From a virus (taxonomy: Duplodnaviria > Heunggongvirae > Uroviricota > Caudoviricetes), in IMG/VR virus record IMGVR_UViG_2617270976_000007, positions 1 through 6,849 of that record: a stretch of DNA of 6,849 bases; one strand, 5' to 3'. The notes beneath the pieces were generated by a model. That model made no database searches and was not told the origin of the DNA. It saw only the letters and a program-made list of their open reading frames with translations. The translations under genes were made by a program, and so were the position numbers. Shown in pieces: positions 1 to 6,849 of the stretch; within the stretch, counting starts at the first letter, position 1, and every line of letters begins with the position of its first letter.

Positions 1-237
1 CTGTCACCCTTTGACGTGGTGATATGGATGACGGATGGCTGGCCGCTGTATGAATCCCGCCTGAAGGGAAAGCTGCACGTAATCAGCAAGCGATATACGC
101 AGCGAATTGAGCGGCATAACCTGAATCTGAGGCAGCACCTGGCACGGCTGGGACGGAAGTCGCTGTCGTTCTCAAAATCGGTGGAGCTGCATGACAAAGT
201 CATCGGGCATTATCTGAACATAAAACACTATCAATAA
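1..237 (+). CDS. insB: IS1 transposase InsB (InsAB' C-terminal portion), 5'-partial; start lies outside the window
   Basis: Frame-1 translation from base 1 reads [78 protein letters not shown], then stop TAA at 235-237. This matches the IS1 InsB C-terminus; the ORF-track Met at 16 is internal. Confidence 0.9.
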
Positions 238-252
238 GTTGGAGTCATTACC
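1..252 (+). mobile_element. IS1 insertion sequence, right-hand portion (window starts inside the element); ends with the IS1 terminal inverted repeat at 230-252
   Basis: Frame 1 encodes the C-terminal part of IS1 InsB; the element ends with ...cactatcaataagttggagtcattacc, the IS1 right end as I remember it. Bases 1-252 are the exact reverse complement of 6570-6821. Confidence 0.93.
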
Positions 253-278
253 TCATTTTTCAGATGGTGGAAAGAACC

Positions 279-2132
279 ATGGCATTTAAACACTATGATG
301 TTGTCAGGGCGGCGTCGCCGTCAGATCTTGCGGAAAAGCTGACACATAAACTGAAAGAGGGCTGGCAGCCGTTTGGTAGTCCGGTGGCCATAACCCCTTA
401 TACCCTGATGCAGGCGATTGCAGCAGAAGGTGATGTGGTCGTCAGTGGTGCAACTGAGCCGGAGTGGTACTACGTCATCGTACTGGCCGGGCAGTCCAAT
501 GCCATGGCTTACGGTGAAGGGCTTCCGCTTCCGGATTCATACGATGCGCCCCATCCGCGCATTAAGCAACTGGCCCGTCGTAACACAGTGACTCCCGGTG
601 GTGAAGTATGCGTATTTAACGACATCATTCCTGCTGACCATTGTCTGCATGATGTTCAGGATATGAGTACGATTAACCATCCCCGGGCTGACCTGAGCAA
701 AGGGCAGTACGGCTGTGTCGGCCAGGGCTTACATATTGCCAAAAAAATGCTTCCGTATATCCCTAATAATGCGGGGATCCTGCTGGTACCATGCTGTCGT
801 GGTGGTTCGGCATTCACCCAGGGCACGGAGGGGACATTCAGCGAGTCCACGGGGGCCAGTCAGGATTCGGCTCGCTGGGGAGTGGGTAAGCCGTTATATC
901 AGGATCTGCTTTTCCGCACGAAGGCAGCATTGCAGAAAAACCCGAAAAACGTTTTGCTGGCGATATGCTGGATGCAGGGGGAATTCGATATGACGAATGC
1001 CAGTTACGCCCAGCAGCCAGCAGCATTTCTTGCAATGGTACAGCAGTTCCGTGCTGACCTTGCCGGGCTGGCAGCGCAGTGTCACGGTGGAAGTCCGGCA
1101 TCAGTCCCCTGGATTTGTGGCGACACGACATACGCGTGGAAACAAGAACACGGTACGCAATATGAAGTGGTATATGGTGCATATAAAGGTAAAGAATCCC
1201 AGCAGATTTATTTTGTTCCCTTTATGACCGATGGTAGCGGAGTTAATACACCGACAAACAACCCGTCAGAAGATCCTGATATTGCCGGGTCTGGTTATTA
1301 CGGTTCGGCATCCCGAACGAACAAAAACTGGGTATCATCAAATCGCCCGACGCATTTCAGCTCATGGGCGCGTCGTGGCATTATTCCCGATCGTATGGCA
1401 ACTGCTATTCTGAACGTAGCCGGGCGCACCTCAGCCTTCATCAGTGGTAAGGCACCGGAAATCAAACCCTCGCCCGGCGGCGACACGCCATCGGTGCCGT
1501 CTGAAGATGCATCCGTACGCACAATCTCCCTGTTGCCGACAGCCGGAGATGCTGCTGCGCAGGGCTGGAGCATTAAGAATGGCGGAATTCAGTTGTCAGA
1601 TGGTGTATTTAAGATCACCAAGCAGAGCAATAAAGCCTGGTCCCTGACGCGCCCGGTGGATGACGCAGTCTCCCTGCTGACACGGGGTGGCAGACTGAGC
1701 TGTAAGTTTCGACTGTCAGGCGCACTGACCAACAACCAGTTCGGTCTGGGAATTTATCTGTATACCGATGTAGCGTTACCTGACGTCGTGGCGATGACCG
1801 GGACTGGTAACCCGTTCCTGATGTCGTTCTTCACCCAGACCACAGACGGCAAACTGAATCTGATGCATCACAAGAAAGCCGGAAACACAAAGTTGGGCGA
1901 GTTCGGGAATTACAGTAACGACTGGCAGACGCTGGAGCTGGTGTTCACCGCCGGCAGTGCCACGGTTACTCCGAAACTGAATGGAGTGGCTGGCCCGGCA
2001 TTCCAGGTCATAAAAGACAGTCTGACAGTGGGACTAAATGCACTGACGCTGACGGATATTACCAAAAATGCAACGTATGGCGTTGAGATAGAAAGTCTGG
2101 TGCTGGAGATAAATGCACCGGCATCATCATAA
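279..2132 (+). CDS. nanS-p: Prophage sialate O-acetylesterase of the NanS/YjhS family (NanS-p-like): N-terminal extension, SGNH/SASA esterase core, C-terminal beta-rich putative carbohydrate-binding domain
   Basis: Long ORF with stop TAA at 2130-2132. The GQSN serine block ([19 protein letters not shown]) and following blocks ([56 protein letters not shown]) match the NanS esterase family as I recall it. About 220 extra C-terminal residues fit the phage-borne NanS-p architecture. Start is uncertain: ATG 279 (GGTGGA 7 nt upstream) or in-frame ATG 264. Confidence 0.8.
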
Positions 2133-2217
2133 AAAGTGAGCCAGTCAAATGGAAGGTATCGTTAAACTCACCGGTAGTGTCAGTGGGTCGTCTGAGACGC
2201 CTGCATGAGTTATCAGA

Positions 2218-2249
2218 GCCATCAGTACTTAACTGGTGGCTTTTTTATT
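2218..2249 (+). terminator. Putative rho-independent terminator between the esterase gene and the holin
   Basis: Stem GCCATCAG (2218-2225), loop TACTTAA, stem CTGGTGGC (2233-2240; 8 bp with one G-U pair), followed by TTTTTTATT (2241-2249). Confidence 0.55.
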
Positions 2250-2281
2250 GTTGTCAGCTTCCGGATAACGGGAGACGGGGT

Positions 2282-2497
2282 ATGTACCAGATGGAAAAAA
2301 TCACAACAGGTGTGTCATACACCACGTCAGCGGTGGGAACGGGCTACTGGTTCCTGCAGTTGCTGGACAGGGTTTCCCCGTCTCAGTGGGCGGCAATAGG
2401 CGTGCTGGGGAGTCTGCTGTTTGGGCTGCTGACATATCTGACTAACCTGTATTTCAAAATCAGAGAGGACCGTCGTAAGGCTGCACGGGGAGAGTAA
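2282..2497 (+). CDS. S: Class II holin (pinholin) of the phage 21 S21 / EssQ type, 71 aa, with dual-start motif
   Basis: [71 protein letters not shown] has two hydrophobic segments and the charged C-terminus [13 protein letters not shown] typical of S21-like pinholins. Met1 and Met4 give the holin/antiholin dual start. GGAG lies upstream. The 106-aa ORF-track version (2177) runs through the terminator and is not the real start. Confidence 0.9.
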
Positions 2498-2501
2498 TTC
2501 A

Positions 2502-2846
2502 ATGACTCAAAACTATGAACTGATTGTGAAAGGGATCCGCAATTTTGAGAATAAAGTTACGGTAACTTTAGCGTTACGGGACAAAAAACGCTTTGACGGT
2601 GAAATTTTTGACCTGGACATCTCGCTGGACCGTGTTGAAGGTGCCGCGCTGGAGTTTTATGAGGCAGCAGCCAGAAGGAGCATCAGACAGGTCTTCCTGG
2701 ATGTTGCTGCCGGGTTATGTGAAGGGGATGAGCAGTCGCCGGAAAAGCGCCCCGTAATTTTAGAGGCGCAGGATGTGTTGATAACCTACAGAGGAAAACT
2801 ACCGGGAATAATTACGGGTTCTCTGAAGAGTCCGCCGAAATGGTAA
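2502..2846 (+). CDS. Small conserved lysis-cassette protein, 114 aa, at the position ydfR (DUF1327) occupies between essQ and rrrQ in Qin-type prophages; function unknown
   Basis: ATG at 2502 is 4 nt after the holin stop, with GGAGAG 7 nt upstream, which implies translational coupling. Placement between pinholin and SAR endolysin matches the essQ-ydfR-rrrQ order. Sequence identity to YdfR was not verified. Confidence 0.65.
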   Translation: MTQNYELIVKGIRNFENKVTVTLALRDKKRFDGEIFDLDISLDRVEGAALEFYEAAARRSIRQVFLDVAAGLCEGDEQSPEKRPVILEAQDVLITYRGKLPGIITGSLKSPPKW

Positions 2847-3084
2847 TTTTACCAGCATATTTTTCATCCAGTAATACAGCAAGCCGCCTGAAAGAGTCTT
2901 GTTGTTCCTGAGACCATTTGGGATTGCATGATTCAAACTGGATTGATGCCAGCGTTGATTGCATCTGTTCCCTTGGAATTGAGAATGCCAGATATGAGAA
3001 GGCGACGGTAAGGGTATTCACGTCTTCCCGAAGCCTAGAAATGCTGTCGAGCAACTCCTGTAGAGAAATGGTGTTATTGTCCAT
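2812..3084 (-). CDS. Hypothetical 90-aa protein encoded antisense inside the lysis cassette; its 3' end overlaps the previous gene by 35 bp
   Basis: Minus-strand ATG at 3084 is preceded by GAGGA with 6-nt spacing (ATCATGAGGATTATTTATG). Translation MDNNTISLQELLDSISRLREDVNTLTVAFSYLAFSIPREQMQSTLASIQFESCNPKWSQEQQDSFRRLAVLLDEKYAGKITISADSSENP is helix-like with a balanced composition. The segment is AT-richer than the flanking lysis genes. No homolog recognised. Confidence 0.4.
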   Translation of the reverse strand: MDNNTISLQELLDSISRLREDVNTLTVAFSYLAFSIPREQMQSTLASIQFESCNPKWSQEQQDSFRRLAVLLDEKYAGKITISADSSENP

Positions 3085-3189
3085 AAATAATCCTCATGAT
3101 TGTATTGACCTGTTAGCAGCCTGAGGCAACAGGCTGGAACTGATAAACATATCCAGGGCTCAGAAACCGATAAATCCTGATAAATATCC

Positions 3190-3735
3190 ATGAACGCAAA
3201 AATCAGATACGGCCTGTCGGCTGCCGTTCTGGCGCTGATTGCCGCTGGTGCGCCTGCGCCTGACATTCTCGACCAGTTTCTGGATGAAAAGGAAGGTAAC
3301 CACACCACGGCATACCGTGATGGTGCGGGTATCTGGACCATCTGCCGCGGTGCCATCCTGGTGGATGGCAAACCTGTCGTTCCGGGCATGAAGTTGTCGA
3401 AGGAAAAATGCGACCGGGTTACTGACATGCAGATGCGTCAGCGTGATGTTGCTGCGCTCGATGCAAAATACACGAAGGAGTTAGCTGATGCGAAAGCTGA
3501 AAATGAAACTCTTCGCGCTGACGTTGCCGCTGGTCGTAAGCGCCTGCGTATCAACGCCACCTGTCCAGGTCCCGTGCGTGAAGCCACCGGCACCGCCCGC
3601 GTGGATAATGCAACCGGCCCCCAACTGGCAGACACCGTTACACGGGATTATTTCACCCTCAGAGAGCGGCTGATGACGATGCAGAAGCAACTGGAAGGGG
3701 CGCAGGAATATATCCGTACTCAGTGCCTGAAATAA
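3190..3735 (+). pseudogene. In-frame fusion of SAR endolysin R (RrrQ-like, N-terminal ~76 aa) to the i-spanin Rz C-terminal periplasmic domain; deletion junction near 3419-3424
   Basis: Residues 1-76 (MNAKIRYGLSAAVLALIAAGAPAPDILDQFLDEKEGNHTTAYRDGAGIWTICRGA...KEKCDRV) match the RrrQ/R21-type lysozyme N-terminus, including the SAR-like Ala/Gly-rich segment and the E-x8-D-x5-T catalytic spacing. From TDMQMRQRDVAALDAKYTKELADAKAEN onward the protein matches lambda Rz up to its C-terminus ...LEGAQEYIRTQCLK. The lysozyme C-terminal lobe and the Rz N-terminal membrane anchor are missing. Confidence 0.8.
3488..3673 (+). CDS. Rz1: Rz1 outer-membrane lipoprotein (o-spanin), embedded in the +1 frame of the Rz portion
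   Basis: MRKLKMKLFALTLPLVVSACVSTPPVQVPCVKPPAPPAWIMQPAPNWQTPLHGIISPSESG has a signal peptide with lipobox VSAC and the proline-rich mature region, closely like lambda Rz1. AAGGAG sits 7 nt upstream of the ATG. Confidence 0.85.
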   Translation: MRKLKMKLFALTLPLVVSACVSTPPVQVPCVKPPAPPAWIMQPAPNWQTPLHGIISPSESG

Positions 3736-4085
3736 GTTTTGTTGATGCGCCGTATCGTCGCTGTATTCCCTCATTAACAGAGACCGCAGCCCGACAGGGA
3801 GACTCCTCTGCGCGAGTGTGCGGGGATAATCAAAAACGATACACACCGGGGTTTACCGCGTTAACGGAGCGCGGCGTTGTCCCCTCATAGTCGCCTGTCC
3901 GGTGCGATGGTGGAAGAAACCGGATGTTTATCACTATTAATTGATGACACAGAAATGGATTCATTGAATTTCAGCACGTTTTTGTATTCGTGTTATTGAA
4001 CATCTGTTTATTTTACTTTTAACATATTGATAATAAAAAGAGCTGTAAATCTTTAGATGAGTCGATTTTGTCCGGGGAAGTTCAA

Positions 4086-4226
4086 ATGGATTTTATGCTG
4101 ACGGTTTCTGGTGTGGTTATCCTGTCCATTGCTTATACTGCAGATAAATATGGCTGCCATTTGTTATCACGTATTGGCGCTTATTGTTCGTTGATGCTGA
4201 TTTTCTCGTCGCTTTTTTTTGAGTAA
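4086..4226 (+). CDS. Hypothetical 46-aa hydrophobic small protein (possible membrane peptide); not in the supplied ORF track because it is shorter than 60 aa
   Basis: ATG 4086 with GGGGAAG 5 nt upstream; translation MDFMLTVSGVVILSIAYTADKYGCHLLSRIGAYCSLMLIFSSLFFE, stop TAA 4224-4226. Possible sigma70-like promoter TTGAAC (3996-4001), 18-nt spacer, TAACAT (4020-4025). Lies in an AT-rich stretch between Rz and the cos-proximal gene. Confidence 0.3.
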   Translation: MDFMLTVSGVVILSIAYTADKYGCHLLSRIGAYCSLMLIFSSLFFE

Positions 4227-4358
4227 GTTATATTAATTATAACAAATAATTTTCTGTGTTATTTTTTCAGGCTATCCCGTCAGAGGGGAAGCCTGTACTG
4301 CCGGGGAGCGAATGGAAAACTGATGTGTCCGGTAACTGCGTGTTCTGTGAACACCATG

Positions 4359-4544
4359 TTACTTAATTATGTAATTCATACCCGAACTCTCTGTTGACAG
4401 CCTTCTTCTGCAGGCTTCAATAACCCACGCTGAAAAGTTTCCTGAACCTTTCAGATCAAGAGCGATGTTAATTTGTTCAATCATCTGGTTTGGAAATCGG
4501 ATGTTGCGGGTTGTTGTTCTGCGGGTTCTGTTCTTTGATGACAT
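4359..4544 (-). CDS. Small cos-proximal protein with predicted ribbon-helix-helix fold, homolog of the lambda right-end small ORF
   Basis: Minus-strand ATG at 4544 with GGGGA 6 nt upstream. MSSKNRTRRTTTRNIRFPNQMIEQINIALDLKGSGNFSAWVIEACRRRL... closely resembles, from memory, the small ORF on the complementary strand near lambda's right end (MSTKNRTRRTTTRNIRFPNQMIEQINIAL...FSAWVIEACRRRL). The beta-strand/helix/loop/helix layout fits an RHH DNA-binding fold. Confidence 0.7.
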   Translation of the reverse strand: MSSKNRTRRTTTRNIRFPNQMIEQINIALDLKGSGNFSAWVIEACRRRLSTESSGMNYIIK

Positions 4545-4721
4545 AATGTTTCCCCATATTCAGTGTTGCTGATTTGTATTATCTGAAGTTGCTTTTACGT
4601 TAATTTGATGCAGATCAATTAATACGATACCTGCGTCATAATTGATTATTTCTCGTGGTTTGATGGCGTACACACATGTTGTGATAAACCTTATATAGAT
4701 GATAATCATTATCATTTTCGT

Positions 4722-4915
4722 GGGTCCTTTCCGGCGATCCGACCGGTTACGGGGCGGCGACCTCGCGGGTTTTCGCTATTTATGAAAATTTTTAGGGAAA
4801 AATCAGATCCGTTCTTCTTCTTTTTAACTGATTGATTATCAATAGAATTTTAAAAATATAAAAGGATCTGACAAAGGCTGTTTTTGTTAGAAAACGCCAT
4901 TTTCAGATCCTTTCT
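4722..4915 (+). other. Lambda-type cos site: cosQ-proximal sequence, cosN (12-nt cohesive end GGGCGGCGACCT at 4752-4763) and cosB with three terminase-binding repeats
   Basis: GGGTCCTTTCCGGCGATCCGACCGGTTACG|GGGCGGCGACCTCGCGGGTTTTCGCTATTTATGAAAATTT is near-identical to the lambda genome-end junction. Three CAGATCC elements (about 4806-4812 direct, 4863-4869 inverted, 4904-4910 direct) have the orientation pattern of lambda R3/R2/R1, immediately upstream of the small terminase gene. Confidence 0.85.
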
Positions 4916-4932
4916 GGTTCCCGGGGGAGTGT

Positions 4933-5481
4933 ATGAACGTCAATAAGAAAAAACTGGCCGATATTTTTGGCGTTGATGTCAGGACCATCACCGCCTGGCA
5001 GAGTCAGGGGTTACCACTAGTTTCTGGTGGAGGGAAAGGGACTGAATCAGTTTTTGATACAACTGCTGCCATTCAGTGGTATGCGCAGAGGGAAGCTGAT
5101 ATTGAAAACGAAAAACTCCGTAAAGAGATCGAGGATTTGAGGGCTGCCAGCGAATCAGACCTTCAGCCCGGCACCATTGATTACGAACGTTACCGACTGA
5201 TGAAGGCACAGGCCGATGCACAGGAGCTGAAAAATGCTCGTGAGGAAGGCCTTGTCCTCGAGACGGAGTTATTTACCTACATCTTTCAGCGAGTGGCACA
5301 GAATATATCAGGGATCCTTGTCCGTGTCCCTCAGACACTGCAGCGTAAATACCCTGATATATCACCCGTACATCTTGATGCTGTGAAAACTGAAATCGCG
5401 AAAGCATCCGATGTGGCTTCTGAAGCCGGTGAGAATGTGCGCAGGTGGATTGATGATTTCAGACGAACTGAGGGCGGCTAA
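4933..5481 (+). CDS. nu1: Terminase small subunit (lambda Nu1 / NohA family), apparently full length, 182 aa
   Basis: [42 protein letters not shown]...[48 protein letters not shown] aligns along its length with lambda Nu1 (MEVNKKQLADIFGASIRTIQNWQEQGMPVLRGGGKG...). It sits directly downstream of cosB and its stop (TAA 5479-5481) overlaps the start of the next gene. Confidence 0.9.
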
Positions 5482-6103
5482 TTCTGCAGGAGCGATAGCA
5501 ACCGGCCTCCTTGCGCTAAAAATTCCTGTCCCTCTGACGACAGTTCAGTGGGCAGATCGACATTATTACCTTCCGAAAGAGTCATCTTACACCCCGGGGC
5601 GGTGGGAAACACTGCCGTTTCAGGTTGCCATCATGAACAGCATGGGGAATGACCGGATCCGCACTGTTAATCTGATTAAATCTGCCCGTGTTGGTTATAC
5701 AAAGATGTTGCTGGGAGTGGAGGCTTATTTTATTGAGCATAAATCACGCAACAGCCTTCTTTTCCAGCCCACGGATTCTGCTGCTGAAGATTTTATGAAA
5801 TCTCATGTGGAACCCACGATCAGGGATGTGCCGGTTTTACTCGATCTTGCACCGTGGTTTGGGCGTAAACATCGTGATAATACCCTCACGCTGAAACGTT
5901 TTTCATCGGGCGTGGGCTTCTGGTGCCTGGGCGGGGCTGCCGCTAAAAACTACCGTGAAAAATCCGTGGACGTGGTCTGCTATGACGAACTTTCCTCGTT
6001 CGAACCGGATGTCGAAAAAGAGGGTTCGCCAACCCTGCTTGGGGATAAACGTATTGAGGGCTCTGTATGGCCCAAGCCGCCGTGCAGGAGAACCAGCGAG
6101 TGA
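5453..6103 (+). pseudogene. A: Terminase large subunit (lambda gpA family), N-terminal ~216 aa only; truncated by an internal deletion with the junction near 6077-6080
   Basis: ...VQWADRHYYLPKESSYTPGRWETLPFQVAIMNSMGNDRIRTVNLIKSARVGYTKMLLGVEAYFIEHK...GFWCLGGAAAKNYREKSVDVVCYDELSSFEPDVEKEGSPTLLGDKRIEGSVWPK matches lambda gpA residues ~35-205. Similarity ends after GSVWPK and the frame stops at 6101-6103, whereas full gpA is about 640 aa. Start codon is uncertain (5453, 5435 or 5411, all in frame). Confidence 0.85.
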
Positions 6104-6569
6104 TGGGGATCCTGACATGCCAGGAAGCGAAAGGACGTGAACAGCTTGCCACGATGCTGGCAGGGCAACAGGGCATGAGCGTTGAACAGGCCCGGGCGAT
6201 TCTGGCCGCGGCGGCACCGCAGCAGCCGGTGGCATCCGCGCAGAGTGAAGCCGATCGCATTATGGCGTGTGAAGAAGCGAACGGTCGTGAACAACTGGCA
6301 GTAACGCTGGCGGCGATGCCGGAGATGACGGTGGAAAAAGCCCGCCCGATCCTGGCTGCTTCACCGCAGGCGAATGCCGGACCATCACTCCGTGATCAGA
6401 TCATGGCCCTGGATGAGGCAAAAGGGGCTGAGGCGCAGGCTGAACAGCTGGCTGCCTGCCCGGGAATGACCGTGGAGAGCGCCCGGGCTGTGCTGGCTGC
6501 GGGATCAGGTAAGGCAGAACCGGTCTCTGCATCCACAACCGCCCTGTTTGAACATTTCATGGCGAACCA
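6079..6569 (+). pseudogene. Fragment of a repeat-containing phage protein (three ~45-aa tandem repeats; possibly the C-terminal region of a head protease/scaffold-type morphogenesis protein); 5' end set by the deletion junction, 3' end interrupted by IS1
   Basis: Frame-1 translation contains three related units: RVMGILTCQEAKGREQLATMLAG..MSVEQARAILAAA; RIMACEEANGREQLAVTLAAMPEMTVEKARPILAAS; QIMALDEAKGAEAQAEQLAACPGMTVESARAVLAAG. The last codons (VMTPTY, stop) are IS1-derived, so the native C-terminus is lost at 6570. Functional assignment is a guess. Confidence 0.4.
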
Positions 6570-6849
6570 GGTAATGACTCCAACTTATTGATAGTGTTTT
6601 ATGTTCAGATAATGCCCGATGACTTTGTCATGCAGCTCCACCGATTTTGAGAACGACAGCGACTTCCGTCCCAGCCGTGCCAGGTGCTGCCTCAGATTCA
6701 GGTTATGCCGCTCAATTCGCTGCGTATATCGCTTGCTGATTACGTGCAGCTTTCCCTTCAGGCGGGATTCATACAGCGGCCAGCCATCCGTCATCCATAT
6801 CACCACGTCAAAGGGTGACAGCAGGCTCATAAGACGCCCCAGCGTCGCC
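6570..6849 (-). mobile_element. IS1 insertion sequence, right-hand portion in reverse orientation (extends beyond the window); terminal inverted repeat GGTAATGACTCCAACTTATTGAT at 6570-6592
   Basis: 6570-6821 is the exact reverse complement of 1-252; starts with the canonical IS1 terminal repeat and encodes InsB on the minus strand. Confidence 0.93.
6585..6849 (-). CDS. insB: IS1 transposase InsB (InsAB' C-terminal portion), 5'-partial; coding continues beyond the window edge
   Basis: Minus-strand translation ...[87 protein letters not shown], stop at 6585-6587; identical to the InsB fragment at 1-237. Confidence 0.9.

Follow-up and report, generated by a model that had tools for sequence, protein, structure and literature searches.

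Why should a phage carry, in the midst of its lysis genes, a small gene that reads against them? The question is raised by a stretch of 6,849 nucleotides (nt) of viral DNA (Caudoviricetes; IMG/VR record IMGVR_UViG_2617270976_000007, positions 1 to 6,849 of that record; hereafter the window, meaning the whole stretch at its full length), in which an open reading frame (ORF) of 90 amino acids (aa), here called gene A, occupies the minus strand between a gene of the ydfR family and the lysozyme gene of a lambdoid lysis cassette. Comparison with related loci and proteins (our labels for these begin with L and P, respectively) shows gene A to be a genuine protein-coding gene under purifying selection, and shows it to be optional cargo in a variable slot of the S21-type lambdoid lysis cassette. 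As to its role, we think it rather probable that gene A is an accessory gene resembling a moron and expressed at times when the late operon is silent. The gene itself comprises the following features:

2812-3084, minus strand: gene A, 90 aa, a coding sequence annotated by the Prokaryotic Genome Annotation Pipeline (PGAP); WP_000369850.1; PHROG 2411

3091-3095, minus strand: Shine-Dalgarno sequence GAGGA of gene A, 6 nt before the ATG

Coding Evidence and Catalogue Status of Gene A

An initial annotation of the window had described this ORF, its GAGGA ribosome-binding site, the AT-richer stretch in which it lies and its 35-bp 3' overlap with the ydfR-like gene (2812-2846), and all of these are found in the sequence. 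It had also supposed that an antisense gene within a lysis cassette was not previously known, which has to be corrected: the protein already stands in RefSeq under the accession above and in PHROG 2411, whose profile it matches over its whole length (E = 1.1e-58, residues 1-90 on positions 1-90 of 90), and the layout of holin, YdfR, antisense ORF and lysozyme is present in 1050 of 5426 complete Escherichia coli genomes (~19%, counted at a query coverage of at least 80%). Gene A is often found in more than one prophage per genome and also in isolated phages, for example phiSTEC1575-Stx2k, and its distant members P0066, P0072 and P0077 likewise match PHROG 2411. The PGAP label in identical loci is 'hypothetical protein', as it is in all records of PHROG 2411 and WP_000369850.1.

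That the minus-strand ORF is a real gene, which the initial annotation had made to depend on its frame being unbroken in close relatives, is borne out by the way in which it varies. The ORF remains exactly 90 aa long in variants of about 86% (L004, L007) and 72% (L005) DNA identity, and of some 95 close copies fetched, all but two are full length and nearly all have 90 aa, the exceptions being a double frameshift (L008) and a deletion (L006); frameshifted forms occur in a large protein database (P0030, P0037, P0049, P0061). The ratio of nonsynonymous to synonymous substitution rates (dN/dS) lies between 0.09 and 0.42 in all variant pairs (Nei-Gojobori method, codons 1-78, outside the overlap), differences are concentrated at third codon positions (for example, 8/4/23 and 7/4/27 at positions 1/2/3), and there are no stops in frame. 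Four other frames have dN/dS near or above 1, or many stops. A 68-aa ORF with a TTG start (2918-3124, plus strand), which uses the wobble-matched frame opposite gene A and is open in L011, L010 and L022 as well, is probably a shadow ORF, and the low dN/dS of reverse frame -1, which carries stops, is the expected shadow of that frame. Upstream of the start codon, AGGA is kept in four of five aligned lysis-cassette variants (L011: AAGGA), and the copy at the iha locus described below has GAGGAG.

The product is a predicted acidic protein of 10.2 kDa (pI 4.5) with no signal peptide or hydrophobic segment, its highest Kyte-Doolittle hydropathy over 19 residues being 0.75, and with no membrane segment. 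In an AlphaFold2 model computed from a 13-sequence alignment, helices are predicted at residues 8-35, 38-52 and 59-77 with medium confidence (mean predicted local distance difference test score [pLDDT] 71), followed by a disordered tail. Searches of Pfam, NCBIfam and PADLOC with the protein gave no match above noise, and its model gave no informative fold match; a match of 15 residues to 'anti-silencing protein Mip' (E = 0.037) was set aside as noise. There is no match to the holin or Rz families of Pfam, and the gene lies on the strand opposite to the late operon, so that it is unlike a holin, an antiholin or a spanin. A profile search of 1.84 billion representative proteins recovered only 21 relatives, all of them small proteins of Enterobacterales, and the diverged relatives reach down to 25% identity. 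The anti-defence, exclusion or lysis-timing role that had been imagined for gene A draws no direct support from the PADLOC and Pfam searches or from a protein devoid of a membrane segment.

A Variable Slot between ydfR and Lysozyme

The part of the cassette that bears on the origin of gene A is made up as follows:

2502-2846, plus strand: YdfR-family gene (YdfR-114), 114 aa, long-tail form (PHROG 406), starting 4 nt past the holin stop

2502-2705, plus strand: DUF1327 N-domain of YdfR-114, residues 1-68

2706-2843, plus strand: tail of YdfR-114, residues 69-114, ending ...PGIITGSLKSPPKW

2838 to ~3140: cargo segment of ~300 bp, with its left joint right behind the PP codons of the ydfR tail and its right joint at ~3136-3146

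3146-3189, plus strand: lysozyme leader of 44 nt (AACATATCCAGGGCTCAGAAACCGATAAATCCTGATAAATATCC), common to cassettes with and without gene A

The upstream gene had been taken as the gene of the ydfR position, and this holds for residues 1-68, which are DUF1327, but the gene is not of the plain K-12 type because its tail is that of a long-tail form. The account of the Qin-type order that had been given holds for the Qin prophage of K-12: the order there is essQ, ydfR, rrrQ, and the ydfR stop overlaps the rrrQ start. For judging what has been inserted, however, K-12 is the wrong reference, since the window has the long-tail form of YdfR. The Qin cassette shares with the window the type of holin, the DUF1327 N-domain, the lysozyme family and the order of genes, and differs in that its YdfR has 103 aa with a wholly different C-terminal third and that it has neither a spacer nor gene A. 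Homology to K-12 ydfR stops at about position 2708 (codon 69) and returns ~40 bp ahead of the lysozyme start. Whereas K-12 YdfR covers positions 1-93 of 93 of the Pfam DUF1327 profile (PF07041), YdfR-114 matches PF07041 with E = 7e-43 as a whole protein and its tail by itself with E = 0.036; the match to PHROG 406 spans residues 1-114 of 114. Residues 69-112 of the tail (...SPEKRPIILEAQNVWITYKGKLPGRITGSLKTPP) are kept among family members even when the N-domain differs, as seen across 18 members, and the dN/dS of the tail in E. coli is 0.3-1.6 on few changes. The AlphaFold2 model of YdfR-114 (pLDDT 58) has an N-domain of three strands and a helix and a tail with pLDDT below 50, and a structure search with it returned generic beta-alpha matches only.

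Cassettes exist that have the same holin, the same YdfR of 110-116 aa with its ...GSLKTPP tail, the same lysozyme leader and the same lysozyme, and that differ from the window in the absence of the ~300-bp cargo with gene A, as in O157:H7 (L116) and AR_0149 (L118). The distance from the ydfR stop to the lysozyme start, which is 343 bp in the window (ATG at 3190), is 42-63 bp in these cassettes. The initial annotation had regarded the entire stretch of ~340 bp as an insertion; the extra DNA is real, but it amounts to ~300 bp (2838 to ~3136-3146) and not to the whole 343 bp. Its GC content differs modestly from that of its surroundings (41-47% over 2750-3200 versus 50-59% in both flanks). Because the leader is common to cassettes with and without gene A, the cargo leaves the translation start region of the lysozyme untouched. 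The A-less alleles hold short unique sequences of their own, for which reason 'alternative cargo' is a better description than 'simple insertion'. The case of PEC122 (L006) is different, being a plain deletion.

Right after GSLKTPP, YdfR proteins end in KW (with gene A), ESQP, LA or EF, or continue for 60-70 further residues (176- and 183-aa forms), endings that were read from window positions 2706-2843 and from proteins P0108, P0124, P0128 and P0165. The several endings mark the ydfR-lysozyme joint, as far as these sequences tell, as a cargo or recombination hot spot with at least four alternative states. We considered whether the ydfR tail is itself part of the cargo and rejected this, the identical tail being found without gene A. 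The last seven codons of gene A and its stop are the antisense of this resident tail DNA, and such a borrowed end fits the poorly conserved, low-confidence C-terminus of the protein.

Gene A Beyond Intact Lysis Cassettes

The window's own cassette is one of the places in which gene A has outlived the lysis genes around it, and the remaining features of the window are these:

1-253 and 6569-6821: identical inverted IS1 ends, which bracket a fragment of a lambdoid prophage late region

16-237, plus strand, and 6585-6830, minus strand: InsB-like ORFs within the IS1 ends

264-2132: NanS-p-like SASA esterase

2282-2497, plus strand: S21-type class II holin (pinholin), 71 aa (Pfam PF04971, E = 9e-33), first gene of the lysis cassette

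3190-3735, plus strand: lysozyme-Rz fusion ORF, a dead lysis gene, in which the first ~77 codons of a signal-arrest-release (SAR) type lysozyme are joined in frame to the Rz C-terminus

In the fusion ORF, Pfam recognizes Phage_lysozyme at residues 33-85 and Phage_lysis at residues 72-179. It arose by a deletion of 751 bp relative to intact relatives (BLAST against L001, of which 6023-6772 is missing, with the joint at 3419-3421 of the window), and this copy of the cassette is therefore non-functional. The holin is named 'class II holin family protein' by RefSeq in identical loci. Further downstream, the ORF for the large subunit of terminase (5411-6103) is truncated, and beyond 4674 the window shows only patchy homology to its relatives.

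Relatives of gene A are found in varied surroundings. In a P22-like phage, gene A lies between the holin and lysozyme genes, where the ydfR tail is only a start-less remnant with no N-domain; in Citrobacter meridianamericanus it lies upstream of another type of holin. A copy of 57% identity (L005, 2446-2718) stands divergently upstream of the adhesin/siderophore-receptor gene iha (3043-5130). The ydfR tail and the 5' end of the lysozyme gene survive on its two sides as degenerate remnants, and gene A alone is intact; this arrangement is present in 60 complete E. coli genomes. We had considered the iha-adjacent copy as an independent mobile context and rejected the idea, as the two remnants identify the site as a decayed cassette. 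One copy adjoins an AIDA-type autotransporter. The distant relatives are located between lambda-like tail genes M and L and antisense to them, near putative lysis and terminase genes, and at chromosomal sites, where they are flanked by dinI and bssS or lie next to a metal ATPase. The relative between dinI and bssS, of 92 aa and ~29% identity (L020, 4001-4279; L021, 1463-1741; Enterobacterales), has no convergent partner. A genome scan for relatives added two further species only, and scans of viral contigs with P0065 gave no match. From these varied contexts, sequence comparison shows gene A to be independent of intact lysis genes and not tied to one lysis system, since it survives where lysis genes do not.

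A Salmonella prophage (L109) is of interest in its own right: between its Q antiterminator and lysis genes (1073-3015) lie a HicAB toxin-antitoxin pair and a TolA-like gene, and in this prophage gene A is reduced to its C-terminal third beside an intact late-strand gene, whose product we call protein B.

Convergent Pairing with a Late-Strand Gene

Several lineages carry a gene A of only 38-60% identity whose 3' end nevertheless converges on a late-strand gene, with an overlap of 7-35 nt, and that gene has a similar C-terminus with the pattern ..(I/L)(T/I/F)G(S/D)L..P.. The lineages with a convergent pair are Citrobacter L009 and L028; L010; L015, L119 and L120, where tail genes M and L flank the pair; and L023. 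The C-termini of the late-strand genes read:

Window: ..IITGSLKSPPKW

Citrobacter: ..KITGSLRAPIKL

L010: ..IIGSLITPPEL

Tail cluster (L015): ..IFGDLKKPPSY

L023: ..LTGDILIPLES

The partners of type B have 62-71 aa (238 aa in one case), and those of 62-71 aa begin with the motif M-x-LEQRVEILE. Protein B is called as a gene in Salmonella, Citrobacter and Atlantibacter and is under purifying selection (dN/dS 0.27, L009 versus L109); searches of Pfam, NCBIfam and PADLOC with B returned nothing, and PADLOC gave no match with YdfR-114 either. A DUF1327 N-domain in the 238-aa Citrobacter partner was considered and rejected, with no support from Pfam or PHROG. At L025, where gene A is only ~25% identical, it converges on a B-like gene that has another C-terminus and is missed by the B profile. 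Throughout tail clusters of the Atlantibacter type, B keeps one N-terminus, which is combined with differing C-termini and differing convergent genes. The small gene between tail genes M and L (L112-L114, 3959-4502; L015, 3941-4518) has the constant N-terminus MSLDNKVELLNIEIKELRG... and at least six different C-termini, and in L112-L114 an unrelated convergent gene of 72 aa takes the place of gene A.

Signals around Gene A

Two candidate transcription signals flank the gene:

3099-3129, minus strand: candidate sigma-70 promoter of gene A, with -35 TTGCCT (3129-3124), a 19-nt spacer and -10 TACAAT (3104-3099)

2743-2769, minus strand: candidate weak intrinsic terminator of gene A, with GCGCCTC, a 9-nt loop, GGGGCGC and TTTT, 43-69 nt past the stop of gene A

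The promoter hexamers, which had been pointed out in the initial annotation, are present as described there and fall within the cargo segment, but the site they form is weak, for reasons given in the Discussion. In close variants the -10 hexamer reads TACAAT, GACAAT, TAGCAT or TATAAT, with A at position 2 and T at position 6 always kept. A perfect 7-bp inverted repeat, CAGCCTG/CAGGCTG (3117-3123 and 3130-3136), has a 6-nt loop that is the -35 hexamer; the lysis-cassette variants keep this repeat, save for one mismatch or a wobble pair, the iha-locus copy lacks it, and the RNA fold of 3117-3136 is not significant (z = -1.3). The terminator candidate sits within the ydfR tail, is also present in cassettes without gene A, and has a cleaner 9-bp version in the iha-locus copy. 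An Rfam search of the region gave no match.

Discussion

The case for gene A as a moron-like gene, a reading already raised in the initial annotation and the one that fits best, begins with its optional nature: among close relatives it is present or absent at the same position, being missing from otherwise equivalent cassettes, and its GC content differs, albeit modestly, from that of its neighbors. Because gene A is antisense to the Q-dependent late transcript, its productive expression would be confined to conditions under which the late operon is silent, that is, to the lysogen. One could envision that a weak dedicated promoter directly ahead of the ATG drives its expression, which the onset of late transcription should switch off through polymerase collision and a full-length antisense RNA. 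The product would then most likely be an accessory factor of the lysogenic phase that acts by binding a cytoplasmic protein, rather than a part of the lysis machinery. Gene A is intact in the window despite the lysozyme-Rz fusion, and it is intact beside iha amid remnants; since it has been kept under purifying selection where the lysis genes have decayed, it probably does something for the lysogen.

Several observations weigh against this reading. A consensus scan for a sigma-70 site upstream of gene A called none; the candidate has a spacer of 19 nt and a -10 hexamer only 14 nt from the ATG, so that its transcript would start at or inside the Shine-Dalgarno sequence. The terminator candidate is likewise weak (z = -1.9, with a different minimum-energy fold of its window), was not called by a terminator scan, and belongs to resident ydfR DNA and not to the cargo. 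The copies beside iha share at least 99% identity throughout, and their intactness therefore represents one event and not many. Most close relatives of gene A adjoin lysis genes, which would suit a lysis-related role, and a simple moron model leaves the recurrent pairing with a similar C-terminal tail unexplained. Nothing relevant emerged from a literature search on gene A, its RefSeq accessions, PHROG 2411 and antisense morons in lysis cassettes, nor from one on ybl58, DUF1327 and ydfR with holin.

The pairing fits two readings: either the two genes function as a pair, or they share a recombination joint at the tail end. Under the first, gene A and the convergent late-strand protein (the tail of YdfR-114, or B) would form a two-gene module, in which one gene follows the direction of the late operon and its partner opposes it. 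The overlap of their transcripts at the 3' ends would make expression mutually exclusive, and the proteins might bind or antagonise each other, as in a switch or a toxin-antidote-like pair. We regard such a module as unlikely, although its probability is not negligible. The overlap and the similar C-terminus have persisted where gene A diverged to 38-60%, the L025 gene still converges on a B-like partner, B carries its shared N-terminal motif and is itself under selection, and the Citrobacter pair lies upstream of a different holin type and has therefore moved as a block. Yet while diverged relatives of gene A do converge repeatedly on similar C-termini, which lends some unexpected support to the initial annotation's suggestion of a two-gene module, each partner also occurs alone: gene A at L005, L011 (with only a start-less tail remnant), L019, L020 and L022, and the tail or B in O157:H7 (L116), AR_0149 (L118) and Salmonella L109, where gene A is truncated. 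The joint falls exactly at the tail end, where YdfR endings are polymorphic, which fits a shared recombination joint equally well; PADLOC offers no match to known toxin-antitoxin or defence families, and the dN/dS of the E. coli tail, at 0.3-1.6 on few changes, points neither way. Somewhat less likely still, in our judgment, is the stronger proposal that gene A and the YdfR-114 tail or B constitute a conserved convergent switch in phage late operons. The lysogen would then produce gene A and late transcription its partner, and the two would antagonise each other through transcripts overlapping at the 3' ends and through cognate proteins; if true, it would be a sensor of the lysogenic versus lytic state, an exclusion device, or a toxin-antidote-like pair of an undescribed type.

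Alternatively, gene A could be a lysis regulator, a cytoplasmic protein that tunes the timing or safety of the pinholin and SAR endolysin, for example by damping leaky expression in the lysogen through the protein or the antisense transcript. Its close relatives do lie mostly in or beside lysis cassettes (E. coli lambdoid, P22-like, Citrobacter, Salmonella as a remnant, and phiSTEC1575-Stx2k), and its transcript would continue antisense through the 3' end of ydfR in the direction of the holin gene. We nevertheless consider this improbable, because gene A is intact where lysozyme is destroyed or reduced to remnants, because some relatives lie on the chromosome, for example at dinI-bssS, or are enclosed by tail genes M and L, because the protein, in contrast to holins, antiholins and spanins, lacks a membrane segment, and because there are functional cassettes of this type that do not have the gene. 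Least probable by far, and close to refuted, is the notion that the frame of gene A is open by chance, within a spacer that is not translated and serves as RNA or as plain mosaic filler. A lack of any clearly called promoter and the few frameshifted database copies (P0030, P0037, P0049, P0061) would be in its favor, but a chance frame would account neither for the low dN/dS, the strong third-position bias and a frame open at 72% DNA identity nor for protein-level homologues down to 25% identity, and the region has no Rfam match and no significant RNA fold.

We thus return to gene A as a moron-like accessory gene. Present in about one-fifth of complete E. coli genomes and in phages that convert their hosts to Shiga toxin (Stx) production, it would, if this reading is correct, be a further uncharacterised factor of lysogenic conversion in pathogenic lineages, including ST131 EC958, O7:K1 CE10 and the Stx2k phages, and its recurrent convergent pairing could mark a small module of the late operon.

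Comparison with Known Systems

The nearest counterpart is gp47 of Escherichia phage phiSTEC1575-Stx2k (WCJ00165.1; PHROG 2411), a protein of the same family whose gene lies in the same antisense position after an S21 holin and YdfR-114. Behind these three genes, that phage carries a second holin pair and an M15 peptidase (endolysin) in place of the SAR lysozyme, and this is not a difference in kind.

The moron concept itself is reportedly that of Hendrix and colleagues. The morons of the bor type in lambda are expressed in the lysogen while the late operon is silent, and bor and lom encode envelope proteins with known roles and mapped promoters. Like bor and lom, gene A is an optional single gene found at one position in some related phages, within or beside the late operon, with a base composition unlike that of its neighbors and, to judge from its sequence, an orientation that would allow expression from a repressed prophage. 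Unlike them, it encodes a predicted soluble cytoplasmic protein, its promoter and terminator are only candidates, it lies inside the lysis cassette, between ydfR and lysozyme, rather than downstream of it, and its last seven codons come from the antisense strand of a neighbor. The family of gene A in RefSeq and PHROGs, and optional late-region cargo as a kind, are thus already known; the new details are its position inside the lysis cassette, its borrowed stop region and its recurrent convergent pairing.

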